A DNA stretch of 64,000 bases from Pseudonocardiaceae bacterium (lineage in GTDB: Bacteria > Actinomycetota > Actinomycetes > Mycobacteriales > Pseudonocardiaceae). The notes below the pieces were generated by a model. That model ran no database searches. It saw only the letters and a program-made list of their open reading frames with translations, and had not been told where the DNA came from. Shown here in pieces: positions 9,230 to 33,954 of this stretch (positions within the stretch are counted from its first letter, which is position 1; each line of letters begins with the position of its first letter). The position numbers and the translations under genes are program-made. The stretch is from positions 11,770 to 75,769 of the forward strand of contig JBOHGE010000020.1 of the NCBI GenBank assembly GCA_050700055.1. Direction: 5' to 3'.

Positions 9230-9230
9230 A

Positions 9231-12657: not shown

Positions 12658-12684
12658 CACCATAATCGAGAAGGCGCTGGCCTT

Positions 12685-12714
12685 GGCCTCCCGGACCCCG
12701 GCGTCCGGGAGGCC
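12685..12714 (+). terminator. 12-bp perfect GC-rich hairpin downstream of the propeller gene
   Basis: ggcctcccggac-cccggc-gtccgggaggcc lies 28 nt after the stop at 12657. No U-tract follows. Confidence 0.5.
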
Positions 12715-12803
12715 GAGCGGCGTTTGTGCAATGCCGGCGGCCCGGGCACCGTCGCGCGCTCGTCGAGCCGTACGCTGCGGGGCCGGACCAGATCTGGGAG
12801 CGC

Positions 12804-15378: not shown

Positions 15379-15530
15379 ACGCGAGCCCATACTTTGAGAC
15401 TTGCCGTTCAGCTGGCGTTCATGTCCGTCTCGCAGAGTCCCTGCGGGTCGGCCGGTGCGCGCGACGTCGTGGGAGTGCAGTGCAGCAGCTGCGCCGGCTC
15501 TCATGCGAACCTACCCACCAACCGTACGGA

Positions 15531-17018
15531 ATGGAGAGTCGCGTGGCAGGTTCGGTCCGCTCTCGACTGCTCGACCGATCAGCCGACCCTGATCCGGGTG
15601 GCACCGGGGACCGGCCGGCCACGGCAGCCCGTTGGTGGCGCAGGGTGCTTCCGGAGCTCCTCGTTCTCGGGTTCCTCGCCGCGGTCACCCGCCTGACGAC
15701 GATCACCCACCCGCGGGCGATCGTCTTCGACGAGGTGTACTTCCGCGAGTACGCGCTGCGCTACCTGGACGGCTCGTACTACTTCGACCTGCACCCCCCG
15801 CTCGGGAAACTCCTGCTAGGCGGCTGGGCGAAGCTGTGGGCAGTCTCCGCCACGGCGCAGTCCACCGATCCCGCGGTGGCGCTGCGGCTGCTGCCGGCGC
15901 TGGCCGGCACGGTGCTGGTGGCGGTGTTCTACCAGCTGCTGCGCGAGCTGACCGCCAGCCGGAAGGTGGCGACGTTCGGGGCGGCGCTGCTGCTGCTGGA
16001 CAACGCGATCCTCGTCGAGTCCCGGCTCATCCTCATGGACAGCATGCTCCTGCTGTTCGGCATCGGTGCCATCACCTGCTACCTCGCATCGCGGCGCCAC
16101 ACCGGACCGGCGCACTGGATCCTGCTGACGGCCGGCGCTGTCCTGGCCGGCATGGCCGCCAGCACCAAGCTGACCGGCCTGGCGGCACTCGGCCTGATCG
16201 GGCTGGTGTGGCTGGCCCAGACACTGCGGCACCGGGTCAGCTGGCGGCTCGCACTGCCGCAGGCGGCCATCCTCATTCTCGTCCCGGCCTTTCTTTACGT
16301 CACCGTCTTCGCCGTCCATTTCCAGCTGCTGCCCCACAGCGGCCCGGGCGACGCATTCATGTCCCAGCGCTTCCAGTCCACCCTGGTCGGCAACACCAAC
16401 TACGACCCGGCCGCCCGCATGCCGTTCCCGGACCGCTTCATCGAGATCAACAAGGCGATCCCCCGGTATGAGCTCTCACTCAACGACAGCAACCACCCGT
16501 ACAGCTCCAGCTGGCTGAGCTGGCCGGTGCTGAAGCGCCCCATCTATTACTGGACCGACGCCACCAAGACCGGCGGCAAGCAGGAATACATCTACCTGCA
16601 GGGCAACCCGGTGATCTGGTGGGGCCTGCTGGCGGGGGTGGTCGTGATCGCGCTGGGCTGGGCGCGCCGTCCGGAGCGCTTCGATCGACATCGCGGGACA
16701 ATGGCCCTGCTGGGCGTCGCGTGGGCCGGCAACTTCCTGCCGTTCGCCACCATCGAACGGCCGATGTTCCTCTACCACTACTTCTTCTCGTTGCTGTTCT
16801 GCATCGCCGCGGTCAGCATCGGGCTGGGACTGCTGGCCGGGTGGATGACCGACGGCGACAAACCGTGGCGCTTCGGCTCCCGGGGTTCGGCAATCCTGTA
16901 CTGGGGCCTCCTCGGGGTCGTGCTGGTGAGCTTCGTGTACTTCGCTCCGCTGTCCTACGGGCTGCCGCTCAGCGATGGCGGCCTCGACGCCCGCGTCTGG
17001 CTGGATTCATGGCGCTGA
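15531..17018 (+). CDS. PMT-family (GT39) protein O-mannosyltransferase
   Basis: AIVFDEVYFREYALRYL and YFDLHPPLGKLL are PMT loop-1 motifs. The remainder is polytopic membrane. Confidence 0.85.
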   Translation: MESRVAGSVRSRLLDRSADPDPGGTGDRPATAARWWRRVLPELLVLGFLAAVTRLTTITHPRAIVFDEVYFREYALRYLDGSYYFDLHPPLGKLLLGGWAKLWAVSATAQSTDPAVALRLLPALAGTVLVAVFYQLLRELTASRKVATFGAALLLLDNAILVESRLILMDSMLLLFGIGAITCYLASRRHTGPAHWILLTAGAVLAGMAASTKLTGLAALGLIGLVWLAQTLRHRVSWRLALPQAAILILVPAFLYVTVFAVHFQLLPHSGPGDAFMSQRFQSTLVGNTNYDPAARMPFPDRFIEINKAIPRYELSLNDSNHPYSSSWLSWPVLKRPIYYWTDATKTGGKQEYIYLQGNPVIWWGLLAGVVVIALGWARRPERFDRHRGTMALLGVAWAGNFLPFATIERPMFLYHYFFSLLFCIAAVSIGLGLLAGWMTDGDKPWRFGSRGSAILYWGLLGVVLVSFVYFAPLSYGLPLSDGGLDARVWLDSWR

Positions 17019-18931
17019 TCCTGCTCGGCAGCGCTCTGCTGCTGGGTGCAGCCACCGTCTGGTGGCTGCGACTGCCGCTGTACCTCTTCGAGGCCGCGGC
17101 ACTGGCCGTCGTGATCGGCCTGTTCGGCTGGACCTGGCTGGCGTTTCTCGCCGCGCTGGTGGCGCCCTACGCCCTCGCCGTCCCGCTCACCGTCGGCGCC
17201 AGCGTTGTCACCGGTATCGCGTTGTGGTACCCGCACCGGCGCATCCGGCCCGCATGGCGACCGCTGGAGGGTGGGCGATCCGGCTGGATCCTGTGGAGCG
17301 TGGCCACCGTGGCCACCACGGCCCTGCTCGGCCGGCTGTTCTGGACGCACAGCCTGGTACCGGACCCCACCGGGGTGTACTCCGCCGGGTCGACCTGGGC
17401 CGACTTCGGGCTGCACGCGGCCATCATCAGCCACCTCGCGGAGTTCGACCGGATGCCGCTGGACCTGCCGGTCGCCAGCGGGGCGAGCATGACCTACCCG
17501 TTCCTCGTCGACCTGCTGTCGGCCCTGTACCTGCGCGACGGCGCGAGCCTGCACCTCAGTCTCTTCCTACCCGGTGTCCTGCTGGCACTGGCCATCTGCC
17601 AACTGGTGCTGTCGTTGAGCCTGCGGTTGTTCGGCCACATCGGCGCCGCCGTCACCGGCCTCACCTTGGTCCTGCTGACCGGGTCGGCCGCCGGGCTGCG
17701 AGTCGCCTACGCCGACTGGCAGGGCAGCGACCGCAGCCTGCTGGACTTCCTCGCCGACCTCCCGCGGGACTACACCACGCTCAACGCCGGCAACGGCAAC
17801 GTCACCAACCTCGTCGCGCATGCCCTGCTGCCGCAGCGCGCGATCTTGTTCGGTCTCGGCATCGGCCTGGCCGTGCTGATCCTGCTGCACACCGGCCGGC
17901 GACGATACCTGCTCGCCGGCGGCGTGCTGATCGGTCTGTTGCCGATGGCCCACCCGCACTCGTTCATCGCGTGCGGGGTCGTGCTGGCCGCCCTCACCGT
18001 GGCGGCCGCTGCCCGGCTGCGCCGGCCGCCCTGGGCGCACCTCACCGCGGGCGGGCTCGCCCTCGTGCTGGCCGCGCCGCAGCTGGCCTGGCAACAGCTG
18101 GCCAACGGCGGCGGCACCGGAGGGCGATGGCGGCTGGGATGGGAGCTGCGCGCCGGCGAGTCGATCTGGGCCTACTGGTGGGCCAACTTCGGCCTGATGG
18201 GCATCTTCTTCGTCACCTTGCCGGTGCTACTGCTGCGCCGGGACTGGCGCCGGTATCTGGTGTGGTACCTGCCCTTTCTGGTGATCCTCGCCGGCACCCA
18301 GGTGTATGCCTTCCAGCCGTTCGAGTACGACAACCTCAAGCTGATCTACTACGGCTATCTGATGGCCGGCCTGTTCGCCGGCTTCCTCGCTGTGCAGGCG
18401 TACCGGGCGAGCCGCTGGAGCCTCGCACTGCTGCTGCCGGTCGCGCTGATCGTGGCGATCCCCGGCCTGCTGTCGCTGACCCGCGAGTTCCAGCTGCGTG
18501 AACAGTTCGCCAGCAGCTCCGACGTGGCGCTGGCCGGCTGGGTCCGCGCCAACACCGCCCCCGACGACGTGTTCATCAGCACCGACCGGCCCAACCAGCC
18601 GGTCGCGACACTGGGCGGGCGGGCGATCGTGATGGGCTACCGGGGCTGGCTGTACAACTTCAACCTGCCGTACGCGCAGCGGGAGGCCGCGGTCAAGGCA
18701 GCTCTGCAGGGACGTATCGACGATCCGATGGTGCGCCGGTTCGAGCCCGATTATCTCGTCGTCGCCGCGAACGAAGGCAGCTCCTGGGCGGTCGACCGCG
18801 ACTCGCTCGCCAGCCTGCCGATCGCCTACCAGAACGCGGAGTGGATGGTCTACCGGCTGACCGGCGCCGGTGCCTGGTCTCAGCCGGTCGCCATGACCGT
18901 GCCGGCCGGGCAGGACCCGTTGACGTCATAG
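17009..18931 (+). CDS. large polytopic membrane protein, GT-C-like (putative glycosyltransferase), paralog 1
   Basis: The ATG overlaps the PMT gene end. It has about 14 hydrophobic segments. WADFGLHAAIISHLAEFDRMPLDLPVASGASMTYPFLVDLL aligns with the paralog at 18880-21057. Confidence 0.7.
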   Translation: MALILLGSALLLGAATVWWLRLPLYLFEAAALAVVIGLFGWTWLAFLAALVAPYALAVPLTVGASVVTGIALWYPHRRIRPAWRPLEGGRSGWILWSVATVATTALLGRLFWTHSLVPDPTGVYSAGSTWADFGLHAAIISHLAEFDRMPLDLPVASGASMTYPFLVDLLSALYLRDGASLHLSLFLPGVLLALAICQLVLSLSLRLFGHIGAAVTGLTLVLLTGSAAGLRVAYADWQGSDRSLLDFLADLPRDYTTLNAGNGNVTNLVAHALLPQRAILFGLGIGLAVLILLHTGRRRYLLAGGVLIGLLPMAHPHSFIACGVVLAALTVAAAARLRRPPWAHLTAGGLALVLAAPQLAWQQLANGGGTGGRWRLGWELRAGESIWAYWWANFGLMGIFFVTLPVLLLRRDWRRYLVWYLPFLVILAGTQVYAFQPFEYDNLKLIYYGYLMAGLFAGFLAVQAYRASRWSLALLLPVALIVAIPGLLSLTREFQLREQFASSSDVALAGWVRANTAPDDVFISTDRPNQPVATLGGRAIVMGYRGWLYNFNLPYAQREAAVKAALQGRIDDPMVRRFEPDYLVVAANEGSSWAVDRDSLASLPIAYQNAEWMVYRLTGAGAWSQPVAMTVPAGQDPLTS

Positions 18932-21057
18932 TAGGAGACCCGGGAATCTGCGTAGACGCGGACGAAGTCCCCGGGGAACAGGTCCGGGTTGCGCTGCGGA
19001 AAACGCTCGCTCGACGTCTCCGTCGCGCCGACCTGGAGATAGTCGACGCCCATCCCGCGTAGCCGCGCGCAGGCCGTCACCCGGTCCGGTGCGGCATAGA
19101 CGCTCGCGATCTTGCGCTCTCGCGACACGTTGTCGTACCCCATGATCGCGGTCCAGGTCGAGAAGCCGCTGAGGTAGACCGACCGGCCGGCCAGGGTGGG
19201 AACCGGGTAGACCTCCCCGGGCGCGGTGAGGAACACCGAGTCACGGCTGGTGTTGTCCTCGATCCAGCTGATGGCGGGCTGCGCGTCACCGAAGACCGCA
19301 TATCGGGGGTCGTTCTTGAGCGTCATGAAATCGAGCAGCCCGGACAGCACCAGGACGGTGCAGGCCACCGGGACCACCGCGACGGCGATGCCGCGTCCGA
19401 TGCGGGTGCCCAGCCGGCGGTTGCGCAGCGGGAGGCCACGCCAGAGTGCGCGCGCGGTGCAGACCAGGGCGTAGGCGGCGAAGAGATTGACCAGGACCTC
19501 CCACAGGTTGAAGATCTTGTGGTTGTGCCCGCCGAGCTCCAGGCCCAGCGCCACCACATTGCCGAAGGCGAAGATCGCCATGACGGCCACCAGCAGCTTG
19601 CGGTCGGCGCTACGCCCGATGATCGCTGCCAGAATGACGAGCGGGACGACGAGACCGAGGTTGAGCCACCAGTAGCCGGCGAAGTCCAGATAGGACCCGG
19701 GGTCGGCGAAATGGAAGTTCTCGACGAGGTAGCCGTTGTGGAAATGCAGCGAGTTCTGCGTTCCGAGACCGCCGTTGAGCCAGATCATCTGGGGCAGTGC
19801 GACGGCACCCGCGGTGGCGAAGAACGGTAGCGACTCGCGGATCGGCCCCAGCAGCACGAGACCGCCGATCAGCAGCGCCAACGCCACCTTGCGGATCTCG
19901 TCGCTACTCAGGAACGCACCCACGACGAACAGCGTCACCGTGGCGACGACCAGCACGGTACTGGGCACCGCCACCCTGCGCAGGCGCCCGCGGTAAACAA
20001 AGAGCAGCACGCAGAAGAAGATCATGGATATCAGGAACAGGATCCCGTTGAGCCAGAAGGCTGCTCCGGAGAGCAGGCCGAGAGCCACGGCGCGCTGTCT
20101 CGGCAGGGGCCGGCGCCGGTTCTCGTCGGCATACACCTGCGGCGGATCTCCGGGAAGACCACCGGGCCCGCGCAGATGCCGGAGCAGGGCGTAGCCGCCA
20201 AACAGCATGAGGGCCATCGACACGATGAGATGGGTCTGGGTGAGGTAAGGATTCAGCGTCCAGAAAATCGATATCCGCTCGCCGTCCTGGTAGGGGGCGA
20301 TCGCCAGGTACTTGTCGTGATTCCACCAGTTCTGCGGCTGCAGCGCCGCGGTCACCGAGGGGTAACTGTCGAAGTAGCGAAGGAAGGCGAGCGAGCCGTT
20401 GGTGACGAACAGGACCACGGCGATGACACCGATGGAAACCCGCCGCCACAGGTAGTGGGCCAGCTCGAACACCAGCACCATGATCGCGACGAACCCCAGC
20501 GTGCCAGGCAGGTTGAACGCCCACTCGATCGGCAGTCCCATCCGCTCCAGCGCGCCGGCATAGAAGTCGAGCCCGAAGTGGTAGCGGATCGTCTCACCGG
20601 TGAAGATCGGGAGCACCGGCGGGAAATTATCACCTTGGGAGAACGACCGCGCGATGCCGATGTGCAGTGCGGTGTCACCCCAGGTATTGAGCGAGACCAT
20701 GAGCGGATCGCCGGCCAGGCGCATATGCATGACCCAGCTCGACAGCGCCACGGCGGCACCCACGCCGAGAATCGCCGGCGGCCGTACCCGGAATGACTGC
20801 CGCCGTAACTCGCGCCACCCCACCCCGATGATCATCGCGTTGGCTCCCATGGCGACGAAGGCGCCGTAGAAGGTCGCGTCGCTGTGACCGAGGCTGTGCA
20901 GCAACCAACCCGCGGCGAAGTTCATCCAGCCGGTGAGCACGATGCTGACCAGGAACGCCGCGACGAGCCGCACGAGCACGGGAAACTCGCGAAAGACGCG
21001 TTGGACGATGACCAGCGCCGCCAGAAACGACAGCAGAAGATACGGGATCGCCAGCAT
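18880..21057 (-). CDS. large polytopic membrane protein, GT-C-like, paralog 2
   Basis: WGDTALHIGIARSFSQGDNFPPVLPIFTGETIRYHFGLDFY aligns with paralog 1. Start chosen at MLAIPYLLL. Its 3' end overlaps the convergent paralog by 52 nt. Confidence 0.7.
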   Translation of the reverse strand: MLAIPYLLLSFLAALVIVQRVFREFPVLVRLVAAFLVSIVLTGWMNFAAGWLLHSLGHSDATFYGAFVAMGANAMIIGVGWRELRRQSFRVRPPAILGVGAAVALSSWVMHMRLAGDPLMVSLNTWGDTALHIGIARSFSQGDNFPPVLPIFTGETIRYHFGLDFYAGALERMGLPIEWAFNLPGTLGFVAIMVLVFELAHYLWRRVSIGVIAVVLFVTNGSLAFLRYFDSYPSVTAALQPQNWWNHDKYLAIAPYQDGERISIFWTLNPYLTQTHLIVSMALMLFGGYALLRHLRGPGGLPGDPPQVYADENRRRPLPRQRAVALGLLSGAAFWLNGILFLISMIFFCVLLFVYRGRLRRVAVPSTVLVVATVTLFVVGAFLSSDEIRKVALALLIGGLVLLGPIRESLPFFATAGAVALPQMIWLNGGLGTQNSLHFHNGYLVENFHFADPGSYLDFAGYWWLNLGLVVPLVILAAIIGRSADRKLLVAVMAIFAFGNVVALGLELGGHNHKIFNLWEVLVNLFAAYALVCTARALWRGLPLRNRRLGTRIGRGIAVAVVPVACTVLVLSGLLDFMTLKNDPRYAVFGDAQPAISWIEDNTSRDSVFLTAPGEVYPVPTLAGRSVYLSGFSTWTAIMGYDNVSRERKIASVYAAPDRVTACARLRGMGVDYLQVGATETSSERFPQRNPDLFPGDFVRVYADSRVSYYDVNGSCPAGTVMATG

Positions 21058-21252
21058 TGGAGGACCACCGTGCTTTCGAGAACAGCCGGCACTGACGTCG
21101 TGTCTCTCCCCGAACGAGGGTACCTCCACCGGGGATGCGGAAAGCAGAACCACGGATACCGAGCTTTACCGGCGCCGGTCCCCGCACATGAACTGGAGCT
21201 GGGGTGTCTGGTGTGGCGACGGTCTGATCGATCCCAGCTGCCGCCAGCAGTG

Positions 21253-22551
21253 TCAAAGGTCCGTCGCCCGGTCGCGGGACGGCGTGGGCGTGGGCTCCGG
21301 CGGCGACGGCGTGGGCTCCGGTGATGGCGGCGTGGGCTCCGGCGACAACGGCGACGGCGTGGGCGTGGACCCCGATGGCGACGGCGTGGGCTCCGGCGTA
21401 GGCCCCGGCGGCGTGGGCGTGGGTGACAGCGTGGGCGTGGGTGACAGCGTGGGCGTGGGTGACAGCGTGGGCGTGGGTGACAGCGTGGGCGTGGGTGACA
21501 GCGACGGCGTGGGCGTCGGCCCCGGCGGCGACGGCGTGGGCGTGGGCTCAGGCGGCGTTGGGGTGGGCGTGGGCTCCGTCGGCGAAGGCGTTGGCGTGGG
21601 TGATGGAAACGGTGTGGGCGACGGAGACGGTGGTGGTGAAATGAGTGGTTGTGGCGCAGGCGTGACGCCGGATAGATACGCTTGTGCCCAGCTCAAGACG
21701 GTGGTGACGTAGGCGGTCGAGTGGTTGTAGCGAAAGACGGCGGCTTGCAGTTGGCCCAGGTTTGACAAGTCACCGCCGCCGGCGCACAGATAGCCGGCTG
21801 CGGCGGTGGTGGCATCGTAGATGTTGTGTGGATCAGCTACCCGGTCATCGTTGGCGTCGAGGCCGTAGCTTTTCCAGCTGGTCGGGATGAATTGCATGGG
21901 GCCTACCGCGCGATCCCATACCGTGTCGTTGTCGAGTGATCCGCGGTCGGTGTCGGCTATAACGGCCACCCCGGGGGATCCGTTCAATGGGGGACCCAGA
22001 ATAGGTGAAAGGGTGTTACCGATGGTGTCGAGTCGTCCACCGCGGGCGTGGCCGGATTCGATACGACCAATACCGGCCAGCACCGACCAAGACAAGTGAC
22101 AACCCGGTCGAGAAGACCGCAGAGTCTGTTCAGCACGGTAGTAGGCGTTGAGCACGGCGCCTGGAATACCCAGCGGTCCCTGCGGCTGGATCAGCCCGAT
22201 GTCGCCGAGATCCCCTGGTATCCCGCCCTTCGGCCCGATATCGAGCAGCCCGTCAGCCGGCACCCCGATGCTCGGTGCCGGATCGCTGAGCAGTGCTGTG
22301 CCGGGTAGTGCTCCGGTGATGCCAAGGCCGGAAGAGTCCGCGAGGGCGGGACTGGTGGGGCGGTCGTCGCCGGTGAGCCCGGGGCTGCCCCACACCACGA
22401 CCGGTGTTCCGACGCCGAGCAGGGCGCTGATGAGGGCGGCGATGACGCGGGTGCGGCGGGCGTGCACGACCAGCCGCAGTCTATGCCAGTGATCAGCGTG
22501 CGAGGCTCGATGAGCCATGCCGTGGTCCTCCGAAGTACTGCGGGTTGGCAA
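21253..22551 (-). CDS. lytic transglycosylase (SLT/MltB-like) with a long Pro/Thr/Ser-rich C-terminal tail
   Basis: [15 protein letters not shown] and [14 protein letters not shown] are lytic transglycosylase motifs. The last ~130 aa are PT/PS repeats. Start uncertain (22551 or 22518). Confidence 0.8.
21413..21502. repeat. five exact tandem 18-nt units (gtgggcgtgggtgacagc) inside the PT-rich coding tail
   Basis: Units at 21413, 21431, 21449, 21467 and 21485 encode the (TLSPTP)n stretch (printed as [12 protein letters not shown]...) on the minus strand. Confidence 0.9.
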
Positions 22552-22553
22552 GG

Positions 22554-23414
22554 TCAGCCGAAGCGGCCGTTGACGTAGTCGGCAGTGCGGGGGTCTTCGG
22601 GAGAACCGAAGACCTTGTCGGTGGGTCCGGCTTCGACGATCACTCCGGGAGTGCCGGCCTCGGCCAGGAAGAACGCGCTGTGCTGAGAGACTCGGGCAGC
22701 TTGTTGCATATTGTGGGTGACGATCACGATGGTCACTTCGTGGGCGAGCTCGGCGATAGTTTGTTCAATGCGCCTCGTGGAAGTGGGGTCCAAGGCTGAG
22801 CAGGGCTCATCCATCAGCAGCACTCGGGGGCGCACTGCCAGGGATCGTGCGATGCACAATCGCTGTTGCTGGCCGCCGGACAGGGCGCCGCCGGGTTGGC
22901 GGAGCCGGTCTTTGACCTCGTTCCACAACCCGGATTTGGTCAGGCATTCCTCGATGAGGTCGTCGCGTTCGTCGGCAGTCACCTTGGTGCCGGTGAGTTT
23001 GAGCCCGGCGGTGACGTTGTCGACGATGGACATCGCGGGGAACGGGTTGGGTTTTTGAAAGACCATCCCGATCGCCCGGCGAGCGTCGGTGAGCTTCCAG
23101 TGAGTGTCATAGATATCCGAGCCCGACAGCAGCACCTCGCCGGCCAGGGTGGCGGTCGGGATCAGCTCGTGCATCCGGTTGAGAATCCGCAGAAATGTCG
23201 ACTTGCCGCAGCCCGAGGGGCCGATCAACGCGGTGACCGATCCGGCTGGCATGAACAACGACACCCGGTCGAGTACTTTACGATCACCGAACCACGCAGA
23301 GATCGACCGCGCCTCTAACGCGGCCAGCTCACCACTGGGCCGCACAGCCGCCAGTGCCGCGGTGGGCATGATCATGGTCATTACCTCAACACTTCCTCGA
23401 ATCTCTCGGGTCAC
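22554..23414 (-). CDS. pstB: phosphate ABC transporter ATP-binding protein
   Basis: [33 protein letters not shown] and [12 protein letters not shown], with full-length PstB-like collinearity. The GTG start overlaps the stop of the sortase-like gene (GTGA). Confidence 0.9.
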
Positions 23415-24460
23415 AACAGATTCGGCAACATGGTCGCCATCTCGTCAGCCACGATCAGGCCCAGCGTGATGAGCACCGGCGTCCCCACCACCCATGCCTG
23501 CCCCGGCCCGGTCCGGAAACGAACCCACACCGTCGCGATGGCCGCCGCAACCAGCAGCGCTGACCACCCGACCACGCCGAGCAGTGCGGAACGATCACCA
23601 ACCAGCAGCGCCTCGGCAGGGCGCAGGGCCTGGGCGGGCAGCTGGGCGGGCCGGGGTTGAACCGCGCTGGTCAGCGCCGCGTCCACGCGCAGCACATCGG
23701 TGGGCCGAAACGCCGGCCCATCCGTGGTCACCAACGTCAACCGGCCCTGGCCCGGGGCCAGGGCCGGCGGCAGCGCGTCACCCGCCCGCCGCACCCCGAT
23801 CACCGCAAAGGAGTGCCGGCCCTGCCCGGTGGTCACAGTGATCTCATCATCAGCGCGTAGCTGGTTGATCAAGTGAAACGGTCCGCCATACGTCGCTCGC
23901 CGCCCAGCAATCACACTGGTTCCGGCCTGACCCGGCAGCGGAGTGTCCCGCCGATGACCCGGCCCCGACATCAACGGACCTGACGACGTGCCCTCCACCA
24001 CCACCTCCCGCACACCCAGTCGCGGGATCTCCAGCAGGGCCACCGGCGTTCCCAACGTCAACGCAACGTTCACCTCATCGACCGGACCCACCGGCGCAAG
24101 CTGCTCAGCCAGCTCGATGCGGAGCTGCTCAGCCAGCTGGGCCTGGTCCCGATCATGACGCAGACCGCCTAAAAACGTTAATTCGACCAAAAAAGACAAT
24201 AGTAGCACTGCGACAATTGCCAGCACCTGTCCCACCAGCCGGTATCCGAGTGTGGTGCTCGCATCAACGGCCGGTGACTGGATTTGCTGCCCGCGTTGCA
24301 CCGGCCGCTCGCTCTCCCGGTACGTCGTCGCCGGCGGCAGCGGCGCAGCGTCCCGGCTGCCGGTGCGATCGACCGTCACCCGCTGGTAGGAGCCGTCCGG
24401 CGACTCGGGGCGCAACCCGCCCACCGGAGCCTTTCCTCGGATAGTCACCAGGCGCACCAT
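23411..24460 (-). CDS. class E sortase-like membrane protein lacking catalytic His and Cys (pseudo-sortase)
   Basis: LEIPRLGVREVVVEGTS..GPGH...LPGQAGTSVIAGRRATYGGPF...RLTLVTTDGP. The sortase AGHR reads AGRR, and TLTTC reads TLVTT. The whole protein contains no Cys. TM segments are present at both ends. Confidence 0.75.
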   Translation of the reverse strand: MVRLVTIRGKAPVGGLRPESPDGSYQRVTVDRTGSRDAAPLPPATTYRESERPVQRGQQIQSPAVDASTTLGYRLVGQVLAIVAVLLLSFLVELTFLGGLRHDRDQAQLAEQLRIELAEQLAPVGPVDEVNVALTLGTPVALLEIPRLGVREVVVEGTSSGPLMSGPGHRRDTPLPGQAGTSVIAGRRATYGGPFHLINQLRADDEITVTTGQGRHSFAVIGVRRAGDALPPALAPGQGRLTLVTTDGPAFRPTDVLRVDAALTSAVQPRPAQLPAQALRPAEALLVGDRSALLGVVGWSALLVAAAIATVWVRFRTGPGQAWVVGTPVLITLGLIVADEMATMLPNLL

Positions 24461-24868
24461 TTACGCGCCCTGGTCTGTGCCGTGACGGCGACCAGGGCGA
24501 AAGTCATAACGAACGCGGGGATCACAATGAGGCCATTGCCGAAACCCGGGCGCCACCGACACACCCGTGACTCCGACGGCAACGCGGAATGGTCGGTTCA
24601 TGAAACTCCTTCACCACTCGTAAACGGTTCTCGGATAGTTATCCCGCGGACTTGCCGAATAACTCGAACATGACCGGCCGGACCGGCACACTCAGCTCCC
24701 GAACTCACAACACCAGAGCTGCCCGATCACTCCTAAAAATCCCCAACGTTAAGTTCGGCGCTTAAAGCGCCAACCACACTCGCACCCGCCGGTGCCGCAC
24801 CCCGTGAACTCAACGCCAGCGACGTCTGGCTGAACTGAGATGTCGCTGGCGTCTAGTTCATGGACAGC

Positions 24869-24911
24869 GCCCGGGCAGCCGGGACCGGGAACACGCCCCG
24901 GCTGCCCGGGC
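24869..24911 (-). terminator. 15-bp perfect hairpin 14 nt downstream of the 24925 stop
   Basis: gcccgggcagccggg-13 nt-cccggctgcccgggc. A second 9-bp hairpin (gccagcgac/gtcgctggc) lies at about 24813-24849. Confidence 0.55.
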
Positions 24912-24924
24912 AAAGCCGGGTTGG

Positions 24925-25836
24925 TTAGAAGGTGAACGCCACGGTGTTCGACGTTGACGGCTGGAAAGCTGCCGGGTTGGTGGGGGTGAACACCGCAGTC
25001 AACGAGTGCGGTCCCACCGGAAGGGCCACCAGACCACCGAAGGCGAAACCACCGGCGACCGGCACCGGAGCGCCGAGGTTGGTAGCCCCGTCCTTGAACT
25101 GGACGGTTCCGACCGCATTAGTCGGTGCCACGTTCGCGAAGGGGATCGCAAAGCCCCCCAACCCGAACGGGAGGGGAATCTGGGTCACCGACAGCGTGGT
25201 CGTCGTGGCCACCGCCCCAGGTGCCGGCGTCGGGGTCGGCGTCGGGGTCGGCGTCGGGGTCGGAGTCGAGGTCGGAGTCGGGGTCGGAGTCGAGGTTGGG
25301 GTCGGAGTCGGAGTCGAGGTCGGAGTCGGCGTCGGCGTCGGGGTCGGACCGTTGGGGTCGGTAGTGGTGTAGGGCGCATCGGTGCCGGTGCCGGTGAAGT
25401 ACATCGCAGTCGAGAAGATGCGGGGCACCTGCTCATCGAAGTTGGTGCAGGAGAGGAATATGTCATACTCTCCGGCCACGACCGGTTTGCTTTCATCCCG
25501 GCTGAACTGCGCTATGCTCCGGCCGAACTCGGTTGCGAACGCATCGGTGGTGGAGAAGTTGGCGGCCCCGTTACCCGTGAGGAGCCCGTCGAAGTCACCC
25601 GGCCCGTCCACGGTCACGAAATAACTGTCCGTACCCTCTGGGCAGGGACCCGGGGTCAGCAGTCTGGCATTGGTCTCAGCCGTTCCAGTTGCCGGCGTCA
25701 GTGTCAAGGGGCCGTCCTTCGGCGGCGGAGCCGCGTTGGCCGCCAGATTGCTGAACACCACCGCTGCGCCACTTACGGCCAGAACGGCCACACCTGCCGT
25801 GAGTCGGTTGAAGAGTAGACTAGTATGCACGATCAA
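24925..25836 (-). CDS. secreted protein with a PT linker and a C-terminal Ig-like domain
   Basis: Signal peptide LTAGVAVLAVSGAAVVFSNLAANA, a (PTPT/STPT) linker, and a beta-rich C-terminus (GTVQFKDGATNLG...HSLTAVFTP). No LPXTG/LAXTG motif seen. Confidence 0.7.
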   Translation of the reverse strand: MIVHTSLLFNRLTAGVAVLAVSGAAVVFSNLAANAAPPPKDGPLTLTPATGTAETNARLLTPGPCPEGTDSYFVTVDGPGDFDGLLTGNGAANFSTTDAFATEFGRSIAQFSRDESKPVVAGEYDIFLSCTNFDEQVPRIFSTAMYFTGTGTDAPYTTTDPNGPTPTPTPTPTSTPTPTPTSTPTPTPTSTPTPTPTPTPTPTPAPGAVATTTTLSVTQIPLPFGLGGFAIPFANVAPTNAVGTVQFKDGATNLGAPVPVAGGFAFGGLVALPVGPHSLTAVFTPTNPAAFQPSTSNTVAFTF

Positions 25837-25869
25837 ACTCTCACTTTCACTTTCAAGGAAGGATGCTGA

Positions 25870-26877
25870 TCAGGGAGTTTGGATGGCAGTCGAGCCGCAA
25901 TCGGAAATCGGCGTCATTCCGTATGCCTCGAGGACCTCAGGATGCGAGCAGATCGCTGAGCCCGCTCCGACGAACGTCGTGTTGTACGGCGCGACACCGA
26001 TATCGGCGTTGCGCAGGACGTTGTAGAGCTTGCGCGCGCCCGGGAAGTCGCTCAAGTCGAAAGGCGACTCACCGTTTATCGCTCGGAGCACGCTGTTGCC
26101 GTGCCGATCGAGCACCGATGGCTGCGTAGTCTGAACGATCCACTGCGCGACCGAGTAGGGCACGAGCTGATTCGGATTTGTCAGCACGCGGCCGTCATTC
26201 TCCTCGACCGACCCCGCAGGAACAGTCGCCTTGACACAATCCCCCAGGGTGGCCTCAGTGAGCCCCAGAAGTGTCAACCAGGCCGACCGAGTGCCCGAGC
26301 CGGCTTGCGGAATGAGCGGCTGCCGGGTGCCGCAGCCGCCGGCATCCGTCGTTTTCTTGGCGTAGATAGATGTCAACTGCGCGAGTGTCAGGTTCCTGGG
26401 GATACTGCTCACACTGGCAGTCGCGTAGGTGAGCCCGTCCAAAGCGAATGGGATGAAGGTCAGGTTCTGTCCGGTACGTGACGCAGCACTGTTCGCCGAT
26501 GATCGTGCGAACTCCGCACAGTCGGCGGGGAACCCGGGTTTGAGTCCTGCCAGTGCGTTGACGCCGTCGGTCGAGCCGTTGGGTCGAGGGATATTCGTGC
26601 ACTCTGGTGTGTTCTTGGTGGTGATTGTCGCGGTACCAGTAGCGTCGTAGGACGCCACGATCTTGGTACCGCCAACAATGACACCGGCGTACGGCGGCAC
26701 GCTGAAGGTCACGCCGTTGGCGTACCCGTTCATGACATCTTCGGTGGTGTTCGAGCCGACACCGGGCAGTTGCCGAGGCCCCGTGGGACTGGTGGGATCG
26801 GCAATGGCCGATCCCACGGTGAGTGAGAGAGTCGCCAGGCAGGCGCCGGCAACCAGGAGCAAGCTCCTCTTTCGCAT
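25870..26877 (-). CDS. secreted PBP-superfamily (PstS-like) substrate-binding protein
   Basis: Signal peptide MRKRSLLLVAGACLATLSL. The PQAGSGTRSAW motif resembles the PstS-family SGT loop. Confidence 0.65.
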   Translation of the reverse strand: MRKRSLLLVAGACLATLSLTVGSAIADPTSPTGPRQLPGVGSNTTEDVMNGYANGVTFSVPPYAGVIVGGTKIVASYDATGTATITTKNTPECTNIPRPNGSTDGVNALAGLKPGFPADCAEFARSSANSAASRTGQNLTFIPFALDGLTYATASVSSIPRNLTLAQLTSIYAKKTTDAGGCGTRQPLIPQAGSGTRSAWLTLLGLTEATLGDCVKATVPAGSVEENDGRVLTNPNQLVPYSVAQWIVQTTQPSVLDRHGNSVLRAINGESPFDLSDFPGARKLYNVLRNADIGVAPYNTTFVGAGSAICSHPEVLEAYGMTPISDCGSTAIQTP

Positions 26878-27028
26878 GTGCTGCTATCCTTTGCAACGCA
26901 GGAGTGCGCGGACTGTTGTCCGGGCACGCGTCAGTGCCGTGCGAGCAGTGGCAGACACACCACGCGGTCACTGAGATCTTGCTTGCAGAGAGTTGGCCGA
27001 GCCGGTGGCCGGGAACGGAGACTCCCGG

Positions 27029-29506
27029 TCATCGCTCGGTCGGCGTCACCCCCTTTCGCGCGCGACGTCGTACCGCGGCGCCGACCAGGTGCATGACCGG
27101 CGAGGACGTCGCCGCCAGGGCACCGCAGATCAGGATCGCCACCAGTAAGCCGCCCACCGCAGGGGCGGGCAGTGATGGGGTACGCCGCAGCGCGGCGACC
27201 GGCTGCGGGGTCACGCTCGGCGACTTGGCGGCCGAACCACCAGCGCCCTGGCCGCTGGCGCCCGGAGTCGGCGTGGGAGTTCCCGTGCGCGCGCCCGTTG
27301 TGGTCCCGCCAGCGTCCGATGTCCTTTTTGAGCCACCGGGCGGTGCGCCTGAGCTGGTCGGTTTCGGTGCCGGCGTCGGCGTCGGCGTGCCCCCGGCGGT
27401 CTTGCCCGCCTGCGCCTCGATGGTCGCGGCCGCAGCTGTGGTCTGTGCCTTGAGCGTGTCGGGAAGCGGCGCCATGCCGAACGGGAGCTGGCCGGGTCCA
27501 ACACCCGGCTGCTGGCCCGGGCCGGCCACGAAACGCAGCAACGCGGCATATTCCTTACCGGCCGCCGCGTCCAGGGCGGCCGGTGCGGTGACCGCATAGC
27601 TCAGCGCAGTCAGCGGGTAAGCCGCCGGGTCAGCAGCGCTGGGATCAGGCGTCAGCACACCCGGCACCGCGCTGGGCTTCATGGCCGCCGCCCCGGCCAG
27701 CAGGCTTGCGGTGCTGGGAGCGACGAACTGACCGGCTGAATTGCGCAGCTCCGCGGTCGGCAAGCCGTACCGTTGGGCCGTCGCCGCGTCCACCACCGCG
27801 AGCAGCGCCCGCTGGGCGGGCAACTGCCGGTCAACCTTCTTCAGGACCCCCAACCCATCGGGAAGCCGACCTTGGCTGTCACCGCGGCTGGCTGACCGCC
27901 CCGCGTCGTGCATGTCGTTGGTGAACGGGTGAATATCGAGTGTGCACGTTCTCCCTGTGACGCCGGTGCCGACGGCGACATCAGCGCAGCTCTGGTCGTT
28001 GCGGGGGAAGCCCGATGCCGGCAGCGTGAGCCCCTTGTTGTTGACGTTGACCACCATTCCGTGCGCATCGGGGGTGCCGGCGATGAACTCACTCGCGTCC
28101 CGGTCGGCCTTCACCCAGCTCCACAGCAACGACGTGAGGTCCGAGCCGCCGAGCTCCACCAGCGCGTCCGGCGGTGTCGTGAAGAACGCGAAGTCCCGGT
28201 ACTCCGGGTTTAGGTCCAGGAACTCGGGATCGCCGGTCAGACCCAAGGGGTTGTCCTTCAGGTATTCCGGCGTGACGCTCGGGTAGCCGGCCACGGCTTG
28301 CCGGTAGGACTGGGTGAGCAGCTTGGCCACCAACCGTGGGGTCAGCTTCATGGACGTGAACCGCTGCCCGTCGAGCTGCCGTTTGTCTGCAGGCGCAACC
28401 GGCGAGGGCTGGTGTTCGATGTTGAAGGCGATGGCCAGCCCGGACAACCCGACCGGCGCGTAGACCAGCGGGCGCTGCGGCGGCGCCTGGTCAGGTGGGA
28501 TCGGATTGGTCATCAGCGCCAAGCCAGGCGAGCTGCCGTCCAGCACCTGGTTGCGGGTCACGCCGTCGGGCAGTTGGGTGTAGCTGTACAGCGCACCACC
28601 ACCCGCGCACAGCGCCGGCTGCCAGCGGCTGACTGCCTCGACCGCGAGCTCGTGGCCGACCACCCGGCGCTCCGACGCTCCGAGCGGGCAGGCCTGACCC
28701 ACCGGCAGGAACTCCAGCGGGAAAAAGATGCGATCGTCCCAGTTGGACTGGCTCAGCGCCGAGGATTCCAGAAAGCCGCCGGCGCCGGGAGTACCGGCTT
28801 TGGGCGAGCCATCCACCTCTGTGCTGCCCCGCGGCACGACCACCAACCAGCACGTACGCCCGGTGGCCCGGCCGGTGGTGACCGGGGCACCACAACCGAG
28901 ACCGGCCGCCTGCAGCACAGTCTGGATCTCGAAATACTCCAGGCCGGTGCCGTCGCCGCGGGTGCGGGCCAGCGGGACCTCGTTGGTGATCTGGGAGTTG
29001 AAGAAGTCGTTGCGGCCGGACGTGACCGCGCTGGTCGGCTTGTCCCCACCGACCGGCCAGAACGGCACGAAGGCGTTACTGCCGGCCGGCAGCTGCAGCG
29101 TCTCCTGCGGGTCGACGAAAGGGTAGGTGAGCTGCCGGGACCGCGTCCAAGCGCCGGTTTGGAGATTGGGGGCGACCCCGCCACCGAACTGGCACTGGGT
29201 GCGGTCCGGGCCATCCGGCCCATCGCCCCAGCACTGCATGATCTGCAGGAAGTTGGTCGAGAACCCGCCGAGCGGCAGCGTGGGGAGGCCACCGGTCCAG
29301 GAGACGGTGACCGTCTGGTTGATCAGGTTCTTGGTCTGGCTGACGGTCACCTTCAGGCCGGCGAACTCGCCGCGGCCGGACACCGTGACCGCCGAGTCGG
29401 TCAGCGCTGCGTCTTCGGGAGCAGCCGACGCCGGCGGAGCGCCGATCAGCATACCGATCACGGACGCACCCAGCAGCAGCATGAGTAGCGCGCGGAGCCC
29501 GCTCAT
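27029..29506 (-). CDS. large secreted, C-terminally membrane-anchored protein with a PstS-like C-terminal module
   Basis: Has a signal peptide. The PBP-like end reads AAYPLTALSYAVT...EYAALLRFVAG...LPFGMAPLPDTL. A PT-rich spacer is followed by a TM segment plus RRRARK. The ATG overlaps the upstream stop (ATGA). Confidence 0.75.
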   Translation of the reverse strand: MSGLRALLMLLLGASVIGMLIGAPPASAAPEDAALTDSAVTVSGRGEFAGLKVTVSQTKNLINQTVTVSWTGGLPTLPLGGFSTNFLQIMQCWGDGPDGPDRTQCQFGGGVAPNLQTGAWTRSRQLTYPFVDPQETLQLPAGSNAFVPFWPVGGDKPTSAVTSGRNDFFNSQITNEVPLARTRGDGTGLEYFEIQTVLQAAGLGCGAPVTTGRATGRTCWLVVVPRGSTEVDGSPKAGTPGAGGFLESSALSQSNWDDRIFFPLEFLPVGQACPLGASERRVVGHELAVEAVSRWQPALCAGGGALYSYTQLPDGVTRNQVLDGSSPGLALMTNPIPPDQAPPQRPLVYAPVGLSGLAIAFNIEHQPSPVAPADKRQLDGQRFTSMKLTPRLVAKLLTQSYRQAVAGYPSVTPEYLKDNPLGLTGDPEFLDLNPEYRDFAFFTTPPDALVELGGSDLTSLLWSWVKADRDASEFIAGTPDAHGMVVNVNNKGLTLPASGFPRNDQSCADVAVGTGVTGRTCTLDIHPFTNDMHDAGRSASRGDSQGRLPDGLGVLKKVDRQLPAQRALLAVVDAATAQRYGLPTAELRNSAGQFVAPSTASLLAGAAAMKPSAVPGVLTPDPSAADPAAYPLTALSYAVTAPAALDAAAGKEYAALLRFVAGPGQQPGVGPGQLPFGMAPLPDTLKAQTTAAAATIEAQAGKTAGGTPTPTPAPKPTSSGAPPGGSKRTSDAGGTTTGARTGTPTPTPGASGQGAGGSAAKSPSVTPQPVAALRRTPSLPAPAVGGLLVAILICGALAATSSPVMHLVGAAVRRRARKGVTPTER

Positions 29507-31191
29507 GACCGCGGCCCCGCTCGGCTGCGCATCGTCTGCGCGACCAGGGGCGGACCGAGCACCAACCCCAGCAGCAAGACGATGGCGAGCATCGCCAGCA
29601 GCGTCTGCCGCCGGTTGTCGGCGGCGTCGACGGCCACCGATACGGCGGCGACAGTGGAGTCGCCAGAACCACTCGCCGCAGCGCCGCCACCGCTCACCTG
29701 CCCGGTGTCCGGGTCGATCTGGGTGGTGGCCTGGCCCCCACCCTGGCCTGTCCCATTACCGGTGGCTCCACCACCGGTAGCTCCACCACCGGTAGCTCCA
29801 CCGCCGGAGCCCCCACCGCCAGATCCACCACCACCGGCGCCCCCACCACCGCCACCCCCAGATCCCCCACCACCACCACCGGATCCGCCACCCCCACCGG
29901 CGCCACACTGAGCCGACGCTCCTTTGCGATCACACGGGTCGGGCTGTGGCGCCGTCTCGGCCAGCAGGTTCTTGCCGTCCGGGGAGAACGTCGGGTTGTT
30001 GCACTTGGTCAGGTCATTGCGGTTGAGCTTGTTGGTCGTACCCGGGATCTGACCCACCTGGTCGACGGCGGCCTGCACCAGGTTGACCGGCAATGGCGAG
30101 TAACCCAACGCGTCAGCTTGCCGCTGGCCCTCGCAGAGGAAGTAGTACGCGAATTCCGAGAGTGTGCGGCCCTTCTGGTCGGTGAAGTTCTGGTTGTTGT
30201 TCTTGGGAATGATCATGTAGCTGTAACTGGACAGCGGGTAGGCCCGCGGATCGTCGTCGACATAAACCCCGCTGAGGTCCTGGGTGAGGTCGGGATTGAG
30301 CCGCGCCTTGAGCAATGCCACCGCGACGTTGCCCGCCTTGGGCTCGACGTAGTAGTCCGCCTTGTTGAGCACCTTCACCACCGGAAAACTCGCGTTGCGC
30401 GCGTAGGAGTACTCGACGTAGGTGATCGCTCCTTCGCTGGTGTCCTGCGCGACGTAGCCGGCCACGCCTTGCGAGCCCGGCTTGGCCTCCATGCCATTGG
30501 TGAGCGGGTAGAAGGAGGTGAACCCGCAGGGCTGCACCTTCCGGCCGGCCCGGTCGCAGTAGGCATCCCACGGCGCGGCGTACTGGCCGGCCATCCAGCG
30601 AGTGAACTGGGCGGTGGTGCCCGAGCCGTCGGAGCGGACCACCGGCACGATCTTGCGGGCCGGCAGGCCGAGGCTGGGGTTGTCGGCTTTGATGGCCGGG
30701 TCGTCCCAGCTGGTGATCTGCTGGGTGAAGATCTTGCTGATCACCTCGCCGGACAGCCGCAGGTTCGTCACCCGCTTGTTCGCGATCTTGAGGTTGTACA
30801 TGAACGCGGTGCCACCGGCGACGATCGGCAGGTAGCCGAAGTTGCGGTTGGTCGGCGGTTGGTCGACGACCCCGCCGTCGGTCAGGCCGTACTCGATCTC
30901 CGAGACCGCGAAGTCGACGGTGCCCGCCCGGAACTGGTTACGGCCGTCGGAGGAACCGGTCGCGGCGAACTGGACCGAGATGCCATACAGGCCGTCGACG
31001 TTGCGCCGCCACTGGTCCAGCGCGTTGAAGCTCCACGTCGAGCCGGCGCCACTGACCGGGACGAAACCCTGCGCAGCGCCGGCACTCGACGCGAACAGCA
31101 ACTGTGGTCCCGCCATGGTGGCCAACACCGCCAGTAGCGCCAGCAGGCGCCGGCGGCGCGGAGTACTGCCGTCAACTGTCATGGTCATCAC
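29503..31191 (-). CDS. pstS: phosphate-binding protein PstS with a Gly-rich spacer and a C-terminal TM anchor
   Basis: RRRRLLALLAVLA signal, then SGAGSTW, ATGSSDG, VVRSDGSGTT and AYPLSSYSYMI (PstS motifs). These are followed by a poly-Gly/Ser tract (~29745-29905) and the TM segment LLAMLAIVLLLGLVLGPPL. Confidence 0.8.
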   Translation of the reverse strand: MMTMTVDGSTPRRRRLLALLAVLATMAGPQLLFASSAGAAQGFVPVSGAGSTWSFNALDQWRRNVDGLYGISVQFAATGSSDGRNQFRAGTVDFAVSEIEYGLTDGGVVDQPPTNRNFGYLPIVAGGTAFMYNLKIANKRVTNLRLSGEVISKIFTQQITSWDDPAIKADNPSLGLPARKIVPVVRSDGSGTTAQFTRWMAGQYAAPWDAYCDRAGRKVQPCGFTSFYPLTNGMEAKPGSQGVAGYVAQDTSEGAITYVEYSYARNASFPVVKVLNKADYYVEPKAGNVAVALLKARLNPDLTQDLSGVYVDDDPRAYPLSSYSYMIIPKNNNQNFTDQKGRTLSEFAYYFLCEGQRQADALGYSPLPVNLVQAAVDQVGQIPGTTNKLNRNDLTKCNNPTFSPDGKNLLAETAPQPDPCDRKGASAQCGAGGGGGSGGGGGGSGGGGGGGAGGGGSGGGGSGGGATGGGATGGGATGNGTGQGGGQATTQIDPDTGQVSGGGAAASGSGDSTVAAVSVAVDAADNRRQTLLAMLAIVLLLGLVLGPPLVAQTMRSRAGPRS

Positions 31192-33426: not shown

Positions 33427-33836
33427 CGATAAATCACCTGCACCGGGGCCGAGGGCGCCACCTCGGCGACCAGTTCCAGGAAGGAGTCACACGTCAGCCG
33501 GGCGCGCACGTGGCGTTGGTAAGTGCGGGTGGCGGTCGCCACGACTTCGCCGGCCACTCGCACTCGCCACACCCACTGGCCGTTGCCATTTCGGGACGTC
33601 TCTCCGACGGCGTCTGGCAGGCGCTTTTGCAGGATGCGGATTGTCTCCAAGCAGGACTCGACATCGGGTGCGATCCGCGTCGACCTCGCGAGGCTGCGGT
33701 TGTTGGCGGCCATGAATCGCCAGGCGAACCCGGTTGCCAGCCGGGCCGCCACACCGCCATTCGGATCCGGCCCGGACGACGCCGAAAGATGCACATAACG
33801 TGCAGCCGGCATCACCTGGAACCGAGCCACAGCCAT
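33423..33836 (-). CDS. tandem YegP/DUF1508-like small protein (tentative), first gene of the pst operon
   Basis: GGAGG lies 5 nt before ATG 33836. Two repeats, FAWRFMAANNRSLARSTRIAPDVESCLETI and WVWRVRVAGEVVATATRTYQRHVRARLTCDSFL, resemble YegP repeats. The stop overlaps the pstC start. Confidence 0.5.
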   Translation of the reverse strand: MAVARFQVMPAARYVHLSASSGPDPNGGVAARLATGFAWRFMAANNRSLARSTRIAPDVESCLETIRILQKRLPDAVGETSRNGNGQWVWRVRVAGEVVATATRTYQRHVRARLTCDSFLELVAEVAPSAPVQVIYR

Positions 33837-33954
33837 TACGCCTCCTGCACACGTCGATTTCACGGGGGCGACGCTGCCCCCCGGAGGTGAACGGGAGCGG
33901 TCCAGCAGCCGACGAAGGGATTGCAGCCAACCCCACAAGGGATAGACACCCAAA

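Follow-up and report, generated by a model that had tools for sequence, protein, structure and literature searches.

A conserved cysteine-free pseudo-sortase encoded in a Pst-type phosphate-uptake cluster of actinomycetes

We report on srtX, a gene at 23411-24460 (-) of a 64,000-nucleotide stretch of Pseudonocardiaceae DNA (assembly GCA_050700055.1, contig JBOHGE010000020.1, positions 11,770 to 75,769; the whole stretch is called the window below). It encodes a 349-amino-acid membrane protein with a sortase fold, recognised from its open reading frame (ORF), Pfam, an AlphaFold2 (AF2) model and Foldseek, and it precedes pstB in a cluster of phosphate-transport genes. As judged from its sequence and those of its homologues, srtX is a repurposed dead enzyme, an old conserved pseudo-sortase, rather than a broken gene. 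Our best explanation, which may as easily prove right as wrong, is that it serves a specialised Pst system as a receptor, no longer catalytic, of sorting signals or membrane anchors.

Sortase fold, active site and family

The reading frame of srtX is intact (349 codons, ATG start, TGA stop), and its G+C content by codon position (0.75/0.52/0.78) is a coding pattern for the window, with a third-position value (GC3) of 0.78. The Pfam model PF04203 (Sortase) matches residues 143-250 with 55.1 bits against a gathering threshold of 26.6. Among PDB sequences, phmmer finds Streptomyces avermitilis SrtE (5go5) with E 5e-12, and a profile built from 121 family members aligns with the 5go5 chain over profile positions 102-243 (E 2e-20). 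The AF2 model, computed with the 121-member alignment as input, has a mean predicted local distance difference test (pLDDT) score of 88.9, a predicted TM score (pTM) of 0.79 and 275 residues with pLDDT of at least 90; it consists of a helix at 67-118, a beta-barrel at 139-263 and helices at 292-317 and 319-343. Only sortases (classes D, E, F and C) occur among the 50 Foldseek matches listed for this model in the PDB, with a TMt of 0.80 for the class D sortase 4d70 and of 0.61-0.72 for the class E SrtE enzymes.

On its predicted fold and its Pfam domain, srtX is a member of the sortase superfamily, and the model strands (139-263), the Pfam match (143-250) and Foldseek place its extracytoplasmic barrel at residues 137-264 (23669-24052 (-)). 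An earlier note, made from the letters of this DNA alone, had called the protein collinear with class E sortases; Pfam, phmmer, the profile alignment and Foldseek all agree on a sortase, as does the structure prediction that the note recommended. The shifted register that it named as a possible refutation was not seen: the register holds in both the sequence-profile and the fold comparisons. The best NCBIfam model, NF033747 (class_E_sortase), scores 81.1 bits, well short of its cut-off of 160, and the NCBIfam and Pfam scans returned no curated model specific to srtX.

The catalytic triad of SrtE1 consists of His251, Cys320 and Arg329 (PMC5148588). When SrtE VAGHRRTYGDPF is aligned with srtX IAGRRATYGGPF, both phmmer and the profile alignment set Arg187 (codon CGG, 23900-23902 (-)) at the position of the catalytic His, which in SrtE1 comes immediately behind strand beta4; 'AGHR' in SrtE is 'AGRR' in srtX. 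The column counts given here and below refer to 151 sequences, namely the 150 best representatives (38-62% identity) and the query; position 187 is Arg in 149 of them and Lys in the other 2. For the catalytic Cys, located at the end of strand beta7 in the TLxTC motif, the profile alignment pairs 'LTLTTCE' of SrtE with 'LTLVTTD' of srtX and thus points to Thr246 (codon ACG, 23723-23725 (-)). A weak, non-significant phmmer stretch would set Asp247 there instead; neither residue is a thiol. The catalytic Arg of strand beta8 (SrtE 'SHRLIV') falls on Val256 in the sequence-profile alignment, with Arg258 two residues further on, in the segment Val256-Leu257-Arg258-Val259-Asp260 (23681-23695 (-)), which ends in the nearly invariant pair Asp260-Ala261.

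Accordingly, the His-to-Arg and Cys-to-Thr substitutions read by the earlier note stand after alignment with SrtE, whereas the conserved Arg region that it saw in LRVDAAL does not: position 258 is Arg in 54 and Tyr in 53 of the family sequences, and position 256 is hydrophobic or small. Tyr229 of SrtE1, in the beta3/beta4 loop, contacts the LAXTG sorting signal (PMC5148588); its equivalent in srtX is Arg170 (SrtE 'GHY' versus 'GHR'), a further departure from class E. As aligned, srtX differs from class E sortases at every catalytic position, His, Cys and Arg all being replaced, so it should not be filed as a class E sortase; with the triad lost, it would be unable to perform thiol transpeptidation. 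As the note had stated, there is no Cys among its 349 residues; we find four His, at 102, 169, 196 and 216. A protein of this length without Cys is not rare per se; the absence at the catalytic position is the meaningful point.

The same state is found throughout the family. A search of 1.84 billion representatives gave 5709 clusters (at 50% identity) with E<=0.001 and 295 with E<=1e-30; nearly all of the best 150 align through to the last residue of srtX. Cys is absent from 109 of the 120 close homologues (61-100% identity), and the remaining 11 have a single one. No Cys occurs at positions 244-248 in any of the 151 family sequences. Position 246 is Ala in 105, Ser in 22, Thr in 9, Gly in 6 and Val in 6; position 245 is Thr or Ser in 148; position 247 is variable. 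The orthologs therefore do not retain the His and Cys, which the earlier note had held out as the mark of a strain-specific inactivation. The best-conserved residues ring the former active site (Pro176, Gly177, Gln178, Gly180, Arg187, Gly192, Phe195, Arg224, Asp260, Ala261, His169 and Arg171), with conservation scores of 0.99 for Arg187, 0.97 for Arg224 and Ala261, 0.93 for Gln178, and 0.91 for Asp260 and His169. Since this region is the best conserved part of the protein, we presume that it is a working site and not a drifting relic; since the triad-less state is common to the whole family, the triad was presumably lost once, long ago, with purifying selection ever since.

That srtX is a class E sortase gene in decay, or one inactivated in this strain alone, deserves practically no credence. 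The low NCBIfam score would suit it, but the frame is unbroken and has a coding GC3, the protein is strongly conserved from end to end, the last five residues included, and all 150 representatives carry the same substitutions, which refutes it. The note's view of a conserved pseudoenzyme and not a decaying gene is upheld in this respect.

The family is found in Pseudonocardiaceae metagenome-assembled genomes (MAGs), in one Nanopelagicales MAG, in cultured Streptomycetaceae (Peterkaempfera bronchialis, Wenjunlia tyrosinilytica, Streptomyces hainanensis and further Streptomyces) and in cultured Micromonospora. Carrier taxonomy was read from source names; a single-protein search of genome contigs gave one true relative and one spurious match. 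Public labels of the members read 'sortase' or 'class E sortase' throughout; the latter are functionally misleading and inflate sortase counts in actinomycete genomes.

As in class E sortases, the domain is predicted to lie outside a membrane anchor, judging from hydropathy, charge distribution and the model helices. The earlier note counted two membrane anchors, but hydropathy gives three segments: TM1 (residues 75-99, 24164-24238 (-), within model helix 67-118), TM2 (residues 291-313, 23522-23590 (-), helix 292-317), which forms the first half of a C-terminal hairpin, and TM3 (residues 320-343, 23432-23503 (-), helix 319-343), the second half, which would bring the chain back to the outer face. 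They are preceded by a Pro/Arg-rich N-terminal tail (residues 1-74, 24239-24460 (-), pLDDT 48-59), which is presumed cytoplasmic; it is basic (11 Lys/Arg versus 7 Asp/Glu), disordered and variable in the alignments. The loop 314-321 (RFRTGPGQ) is also basic. In the middle of TM1 there is a polar residue, Glu93, with Tyr, Asn, Phe, Gln, Asp or His in this column in the relatives. The likely topology, according to the model, places the N-terminus inside and the barrel outside, and the hairpin returns the C-terminus to the outer face.

The protein closes with Leu-Pro-Asn-Leu-Leu (23414-23428 (-), pLDDT ~95), which is nearly invariant (Leu345 0.87, Pro346 0.94, Asn347 0.87 by column conservation over the 151 sequences). 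It is the very end of the protein in the members displayed and is predicted to be on the barrel's side of the membrane. Given its fixed length and its place on the side of the sortase groove, this LPxxx end may be a pseudo-substrate or docking peptide built into the protein.

The pst cluster, sorting signals and the proposed role

To describe the surroundings of srtX, we used 84 related loci (numbered with the prefix L) obtained by a metagenome search with a 21-sequence alignment; the peptide pattern GPGHRRDT[PV] biases this sample to one part of the family, and gene starts in the loci are approximate. At 95% identity they collapse to 63 lineages. By tblastn, the order pstC-pstA-PstS-825aa-335aa-...-srtX-pstB is held in the loci down to 41% srtX identity, and it is also present in the cultured Peterkaempfera and Micromonospora genomes. 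The linkage of the orthologs to pstB and the other genes of a pst-like cluster, about which the earlier note had asked, is kept over the same range. The start of pstB lies at most 1.5 kb downstream of srtX in 35 of the 44 lineages with enough flanking sequence; the exceptions are rearranged Pseudonocardiaceae-type clusters, in which pst genes are still present.

In the window, the permease genes are pstC (32407-33426 (-), TIGR02138 with 249.6 bits against a cut-off of 196.45) and pstA (31172-32407 (-), TIGR00974 with 196.2 bits against 193.45), so that both permeases of a PstSCAB transporter are recognised at the equivalog level. The longest ORF of the ATPase gene pstB begins at GTG (22554-23414 (-)) and scores 330.4 bits with TIGR00972, just below the cut-off of 343.2. 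The gene for PstS (562 amino acids, 29503-31191 (-)) matches PF12849 (1.5e-39) and, just below the cut-off of 205, TIGR00975 (198.4 bits); its product has a Gly-rich linker, a C-terminal membrane helix and a basic tail, and lacks a lipobox. We take its RSDGSGTT to resemble the phosphate-binding loop of E. coli PstS. The following gene (27029-29506 (-)) encodes an 825-amino-acid protein with a signal peptide, a beta domain, a PstS fold, a Pro/Thr linker and again a C-terminal membrane helix with a basic tail; its AF2 model matches PstS structures in Foldseek with TMt 0.72-0.77. Of the orthologues of PstS and of the 825-amino-acid protein that are readable as far as the C-terminus, almost all have a membrane helix and a basic tail there. 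A third, divergent PstS-like binding protein (335 amino acids, secreted, 25870-26877 (-)) was recognised by phmmer against 1twy (E 1.5e-4) and also 4q8r.

The earlier note described srtX as translationally coupled to pstB through a GTGA overlap. The overlap exists in the DNA (TGA at 23413-23411, GTG at 23414-23412), but strict translational coupling does not hold as a conserved feature, the relatives starting pstB at a later ATG. The 'V-T' reading at the GTG is forced by srtX's own conserved Leu-Leu-stop codons. In close relatives, the called pstB start is an ATG about 30 nt past the srtX stop; in the window, there are ATGs at pstB codons 12, 14 and 16 (23381, 23375 and 23369) with GAGG before them, and on this comparison a start at an ATG 33-45 nt downstream is more likely than the GTG. 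In distant loci the pstB frame opens only past the srtX stop; several have their ATG between a few and a few tens of nt further on, and others have a larger gap. As far as the sequences tell, adjacency and co-orientation are the conserved feature and close spacing is common; the 4-nt overlap is not conserved.

In 14 of the 45 lineages with enough upstream sequence, the ORF ending just upstream of srtX on the same strand carries a full sorting signal, i.e., an LPxTG-type motif, then a hydrophobic stretch, then a basic tail. The motifs are LPKTG (L028, L041), LPVTG (L033 and L086, a Micromonospora), LPSTG (L043/44, L076), LPNTG (L042), LAHTG (L023), LASTG (L050), IPSTG (L036, L053/55), IPATG (L047, L065/66, L071, L081, L084), IVSTG (L077), LTATG (L067) and IVAAG (L069/72/73/78). 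A scan of 715 kb of related loci with a strict motif found 12 signal-bearing ORFs, 10 of them directly upstream of srtX; neither the related loci nor the window gave a second match to a sortase profile. In one subclade, conservation over the 40 C-terminal residues of the signal proteins usually equals or exceeds that of the body (e.g., 79% versus 60%, and 77% versus 54%), and these residues contain a conserved 'GR' in the middle of the helix; this is unusual for a generic anchor. Pfam gave no informative domain for nine LPxTG-type neighbours of srtX.

What we infer from these observations is binding of peptides or anchors and a role in phosphate uptake; the peptide-binding scaffold or anchor proposed by the earlier note gains support from the active-site conservation and from the LPxTG-type genes upstream. 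According to the mechanism that we propose, srtX would descend from a class-E-like sortase, having kept the fold and membrane topology and lost the His-Cys-Arg triad, and would be a core accessory gene of a specialised actinomycete Pst-type cluster comprising PstC, PstA, PstB and three PstS-fold surface proteins. Two of these, if held by a C-terminal helix and a basic tail, would have the topology of a sortase substrate before cleavage. The former substrate groove and the three membrane helices may bind such C-terminal segments of the cluster proteins, whether anchors or signals, and leave them uncleaved, the partners including the LPxTG-type proteins encoded just upstream in many lineages, and the binding may retain or organise them beside the PstCA permease. 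The history could plausibly have begun with a dedicated ancestral sortase that anchored phosphate-binding proteins to the wall; catalysis would have been lost later while recognition was kept. We consider an anchor-binding role most likely because the former active site is the most conserved region and the putative partners have the topology of an uncleaved substrate. It is tempting to go further and propose, tentatively and with rather more doubt than belief, that a dead-sortase receptor tethers PstS-type and LPxTG-type proteins to a dedicated Pst permease in a surface phosphate-harvesting complex, possibly gated by its own LPNLL end in the manner of a pseudo-substrate.

Several points weigh against the receptor. 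The cluster of the window has no LPxTG gene, and, as the earlier note had observed, none of its neighbouring proteins shows an LPXTG or LAXTG signal; two thirds of the lineages have no such gene directly upstream of srtX. The active-site replacements are equal in lineages with and without a signal gene. The motifs before the anchors are loosely conserved, A[VLI]P[VTI][STE][VL] in PstS and R[YF]A[VL]P or SLPAPAVG in the 825-amino-acid proteins, and the PstS of the window has AVSVAV at this site; we regard these motifs as weak and as hints only. Finally, a role of the membrane helices alone or of anion binding would fit the synteny equally well.

A still more novel alternative is that LPxTG signals are processed by a cysteine-free mechanism, srtX being an enzyme of a non-thiol kind in which the hydroxyl of Thr/Ser245 is activated by, e.g., Arg187, Asp260 or His169 and which would cleave or transfer the LPxTG-type signals of the neighbours. 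The recurrent LPxTG/IPxTG/LAxTG gene directly upstream in those 14 of 45 lineages, with no active sortase nearby, could be explained in this way, as could Thr or Ser at position 245 in 148 of 151 sequences and the nearly invariant Arg187, Asp260 and Arg224. However, the Thr preceding the Cys is a conserved residue of ordinary sortases too (TLxTC) and may be inherited rather than a new nucleophile, the position equivalent to Cys is mostly Ala, many lineages, that of the window included, have no LPxTG partner, and the replacements are identical with or without one. We know of no precedent for a hydroxyl-based sortase, and we consider this reading quite unlikely. The narrower idea that a Ser or Cys nucleophile is confined to LPxTG-linked lineages was rejected, there being no difference between the lineages.

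According to another reading, srtX is an assembly, regulatory or sensing subunit of PstCAB and its sortase past is irrelevant; it could act through its three helices on PstC/PstA or through an Arg-rich pocket (Arg170, 171, 187, 224 and 240 with His169) that binds phosphate or a phosphorylated wall polymer. This reading agrees well with pstB being the tightest conserved neighbour, with the conserved Trp, Pro and polar positions in the helices and the several invariant Arg in the barrel, and with the phosphate-related surroundings (a CYTH-CHAD gene in the window, PhoU genes in L004). It leaves unexplained, however, why sorting-signal genes recur exactly upstream of srtX and why the PstS-type partners have substrate-like C-terminal anchors; we hold it to be unlikely, and prefer the receptor for sorting signals or anchors.

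Other genes and small reading frames around srtX

Between srtX and the next gene upstream, the window has a 464-bp gap (24461-24924 (-)) at the place where relatives carry a C-terminally anchored or LPxTG-type gene. The gene before it (24925-25836 (-)) encodes a secreted 303-amino-acid protein with a signal peptide, a small domain, a Pro/Thr linker and an Ig-like C-terminus. No Pfam model matches its N-terminal domain, which belongs to a paralogous family with two to four copies per cluster (L008, L003, L013, L023); the copies in L008 are at 8186-9067, 9090-10007 and 13415-13753. At the C-terminus these paralogues differ, ending in an LPxTG-type signal, a plain membrane anchor or an Ig-like domain. 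Where the window has the gap, L008 has a 305-amino-acid paralogue of the 303-amino-acid protein, ending '...NDVTG...helix...RKRRSS', and the window appears, on this comparison, to have lost the gene that L008 keeps upstream of srtX. It was also considered that the 303-amino-acid gene runs on into a sorting signal; this was rejected, as the frame would have to cross four stop codons and the sequence there does not resemble the L008 gene.

Two small ORFs lie in or near the gap. One, of 45 amino acids (MPSESRVCRWRPGFGNGLIVIPAFVMTFALVAVTAQTRARKWCAW, 24445-24582 (-)), would encode a membrane helix with a basic tail, has a GC3 of 0.76 and overlaps the srtX start by 16 nt; it was rejected as a SafA-like partner or a real gene, having no homologue in the 84 loci and no FPW motif. 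The other (24461-24601) was rejected as a real gene for its non-coding GC3 of 0.57. These small ORFs may be a relic of a sorting-signal or anchor gene. In L086, the two called genes that flank srtX-pstB (9474-9974 and 12160-13149) have the same 60 N-terminal residues, so the LPVTG-protein gene may have been duplicated locally in its 5' part.

Directly after pstB there is a gene for an SLT_2-like lytic transglycosylase (21253-22551 (-)) with a C-terminal Pro/Thr/Ser repeat of about 150 amino acids; it occurs chiefly in the close Pseudonocardiaceae-type loci, L064 being the one case outside them. At the other end of the cluster, an ORF of about 137 amino acids (33423-33836 (-)), the stop of which overlaps the pstC start, gives a weak DUF1508/YegP match (19.8 bits, below the cut-off of 22); a small gene stands at the equal place in L004 and L086, so the operon may begin with this ORF. 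The search for a PHO box upstream of pstC found a single GTTCACC (33886-33892 (-)), about 50 nt upstream of this ORF, and no second direct repeat. A promoter and terminator scan of 21000-27100 gave no signal above shuffled sequences.

Just upstream of the cluster are genes for a CYTH-CHAD protein (34996-36534 (-)), of a family linked to polyphosphate and triphosphate metabolism, and for a sigma-70 family factor (36647-37558 (-)); L004 has two PhoU genes at the corresponding position. On the other side, three ORFs (15480-17018 (+), 16619-18931 (+) and 18880-21153 (-)) encode a protein O-mannosyltransferase (PMT and PMT_4TMC) and two membrane proteins of about 760 amino acids with weak DUF6798 matches. 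These three ORFs adjoin a cluster whose secreted proteins are rich in Pro/Thr linkers, which are likely targets of O-glycosylation. In L046, a second pstB-pstA-pstC set (18510-20753 (-)), 42-58% identical to the window proteins, is located on the opposite strand at a distance of 8 kb from the srtX cluster; therefore, the srtX cluster is there an additional Pst system and not the sole one.

Comparison with known systems

Sortases are known from textbooks as cysteine transpeptidases, and the srtX clade would be the first pseudo-sortase family known to us. Full-text literature searches turned up neither a family of Cys-less sortases nor a sortase gene located within a pst operon. The clade offers a direct way to ask what a sortase groove does without chemistry.

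The class E sortases (Streptomyces coelicolor SrtE1, 5cuw; S. avermitilis, 5go5; T. fusca, 9iok) are the best class by sequence and have the same beta-barrel. The motifs GxGH...PGxxG...G(H/R)R..YGxPF and LTL.T are collinear in both, both have an N-terminal membrane helix with the domain outside, and a sorting-signal protein is encoded alongside in many srtX relatives. The difference lies in the active site, where His251/Cys320/Arg329 of SrtE1 (PMC5148588) correspond to Arg187/Thr246 (Ala in most members)/Val256 and Tyr229 corresponds to Arg170, as well as in the additional C-terminal two-helix hairpin, the LPNLL end and the location of the gene inside a pst operon. The best structural match is the class D sortase of Clostridium perfringens (4d70; E 3.5e-10, TMt 0.80, rmsd 3.2; profile match E 2.9e-19), which is 23% identical in sequence to srtX; unlike srtX, it is an active Cys transpeptidase, comes from a Firmicute and has no pst context.

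SafA, a 52-amino-acid membrane partner of the actinobacterial housekeeping sortase, is encoded downstream of it, has an FPW motif and acts through helix-helix contact (PMC9282373). As a precedent, it shows that a membrane protein that is not itself an enzyme can act together with a class E sortase; however, it accompanies an active sortase, and no equivalent is conserved beside srtX. An analogy only is offered by proteins with a membrane enzyme fold that have lost the catalytic residues and are kept as client-binding factors. Such are the iRhoms and derlins of the rhomboid family, pseudoproteases keeping substrate recognition; their fold, organisms and clients are unrelated to those of srtX, with no sequence or structural relationship.

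Finally, PstSCAB systems (E. coli, 9k3x; Mycobacterium tuberculosis PstS-1 and PstS-3) have in common with the cluster of the window PstC and PstA, which score above the equivalog cut-offs there, and PstS and PstB, which score slightly below. The latter differs in four to six extra genes between pstA and pstB, in three PstS-fold proteins with a C-terminal helix, not a lipid, as their anchor, and in the presence of a sortase-fold subunit; we are unaware of such a subunit in any described Pst system. For phosphate biology, the cluster suggests that there is a second and elaborate Pst system, whose three PstS-fold proteins stand on long glycosylatable stalks; it may be an adaptation of soil and cold-desert actinomycetes for phosphate capture through a thick wall. 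The cultured carriers (Peterkaempfera bronchialis, Wenjunlia tyrosinilytica, Micromonospora and several Streptomyces) make these ideas testable.

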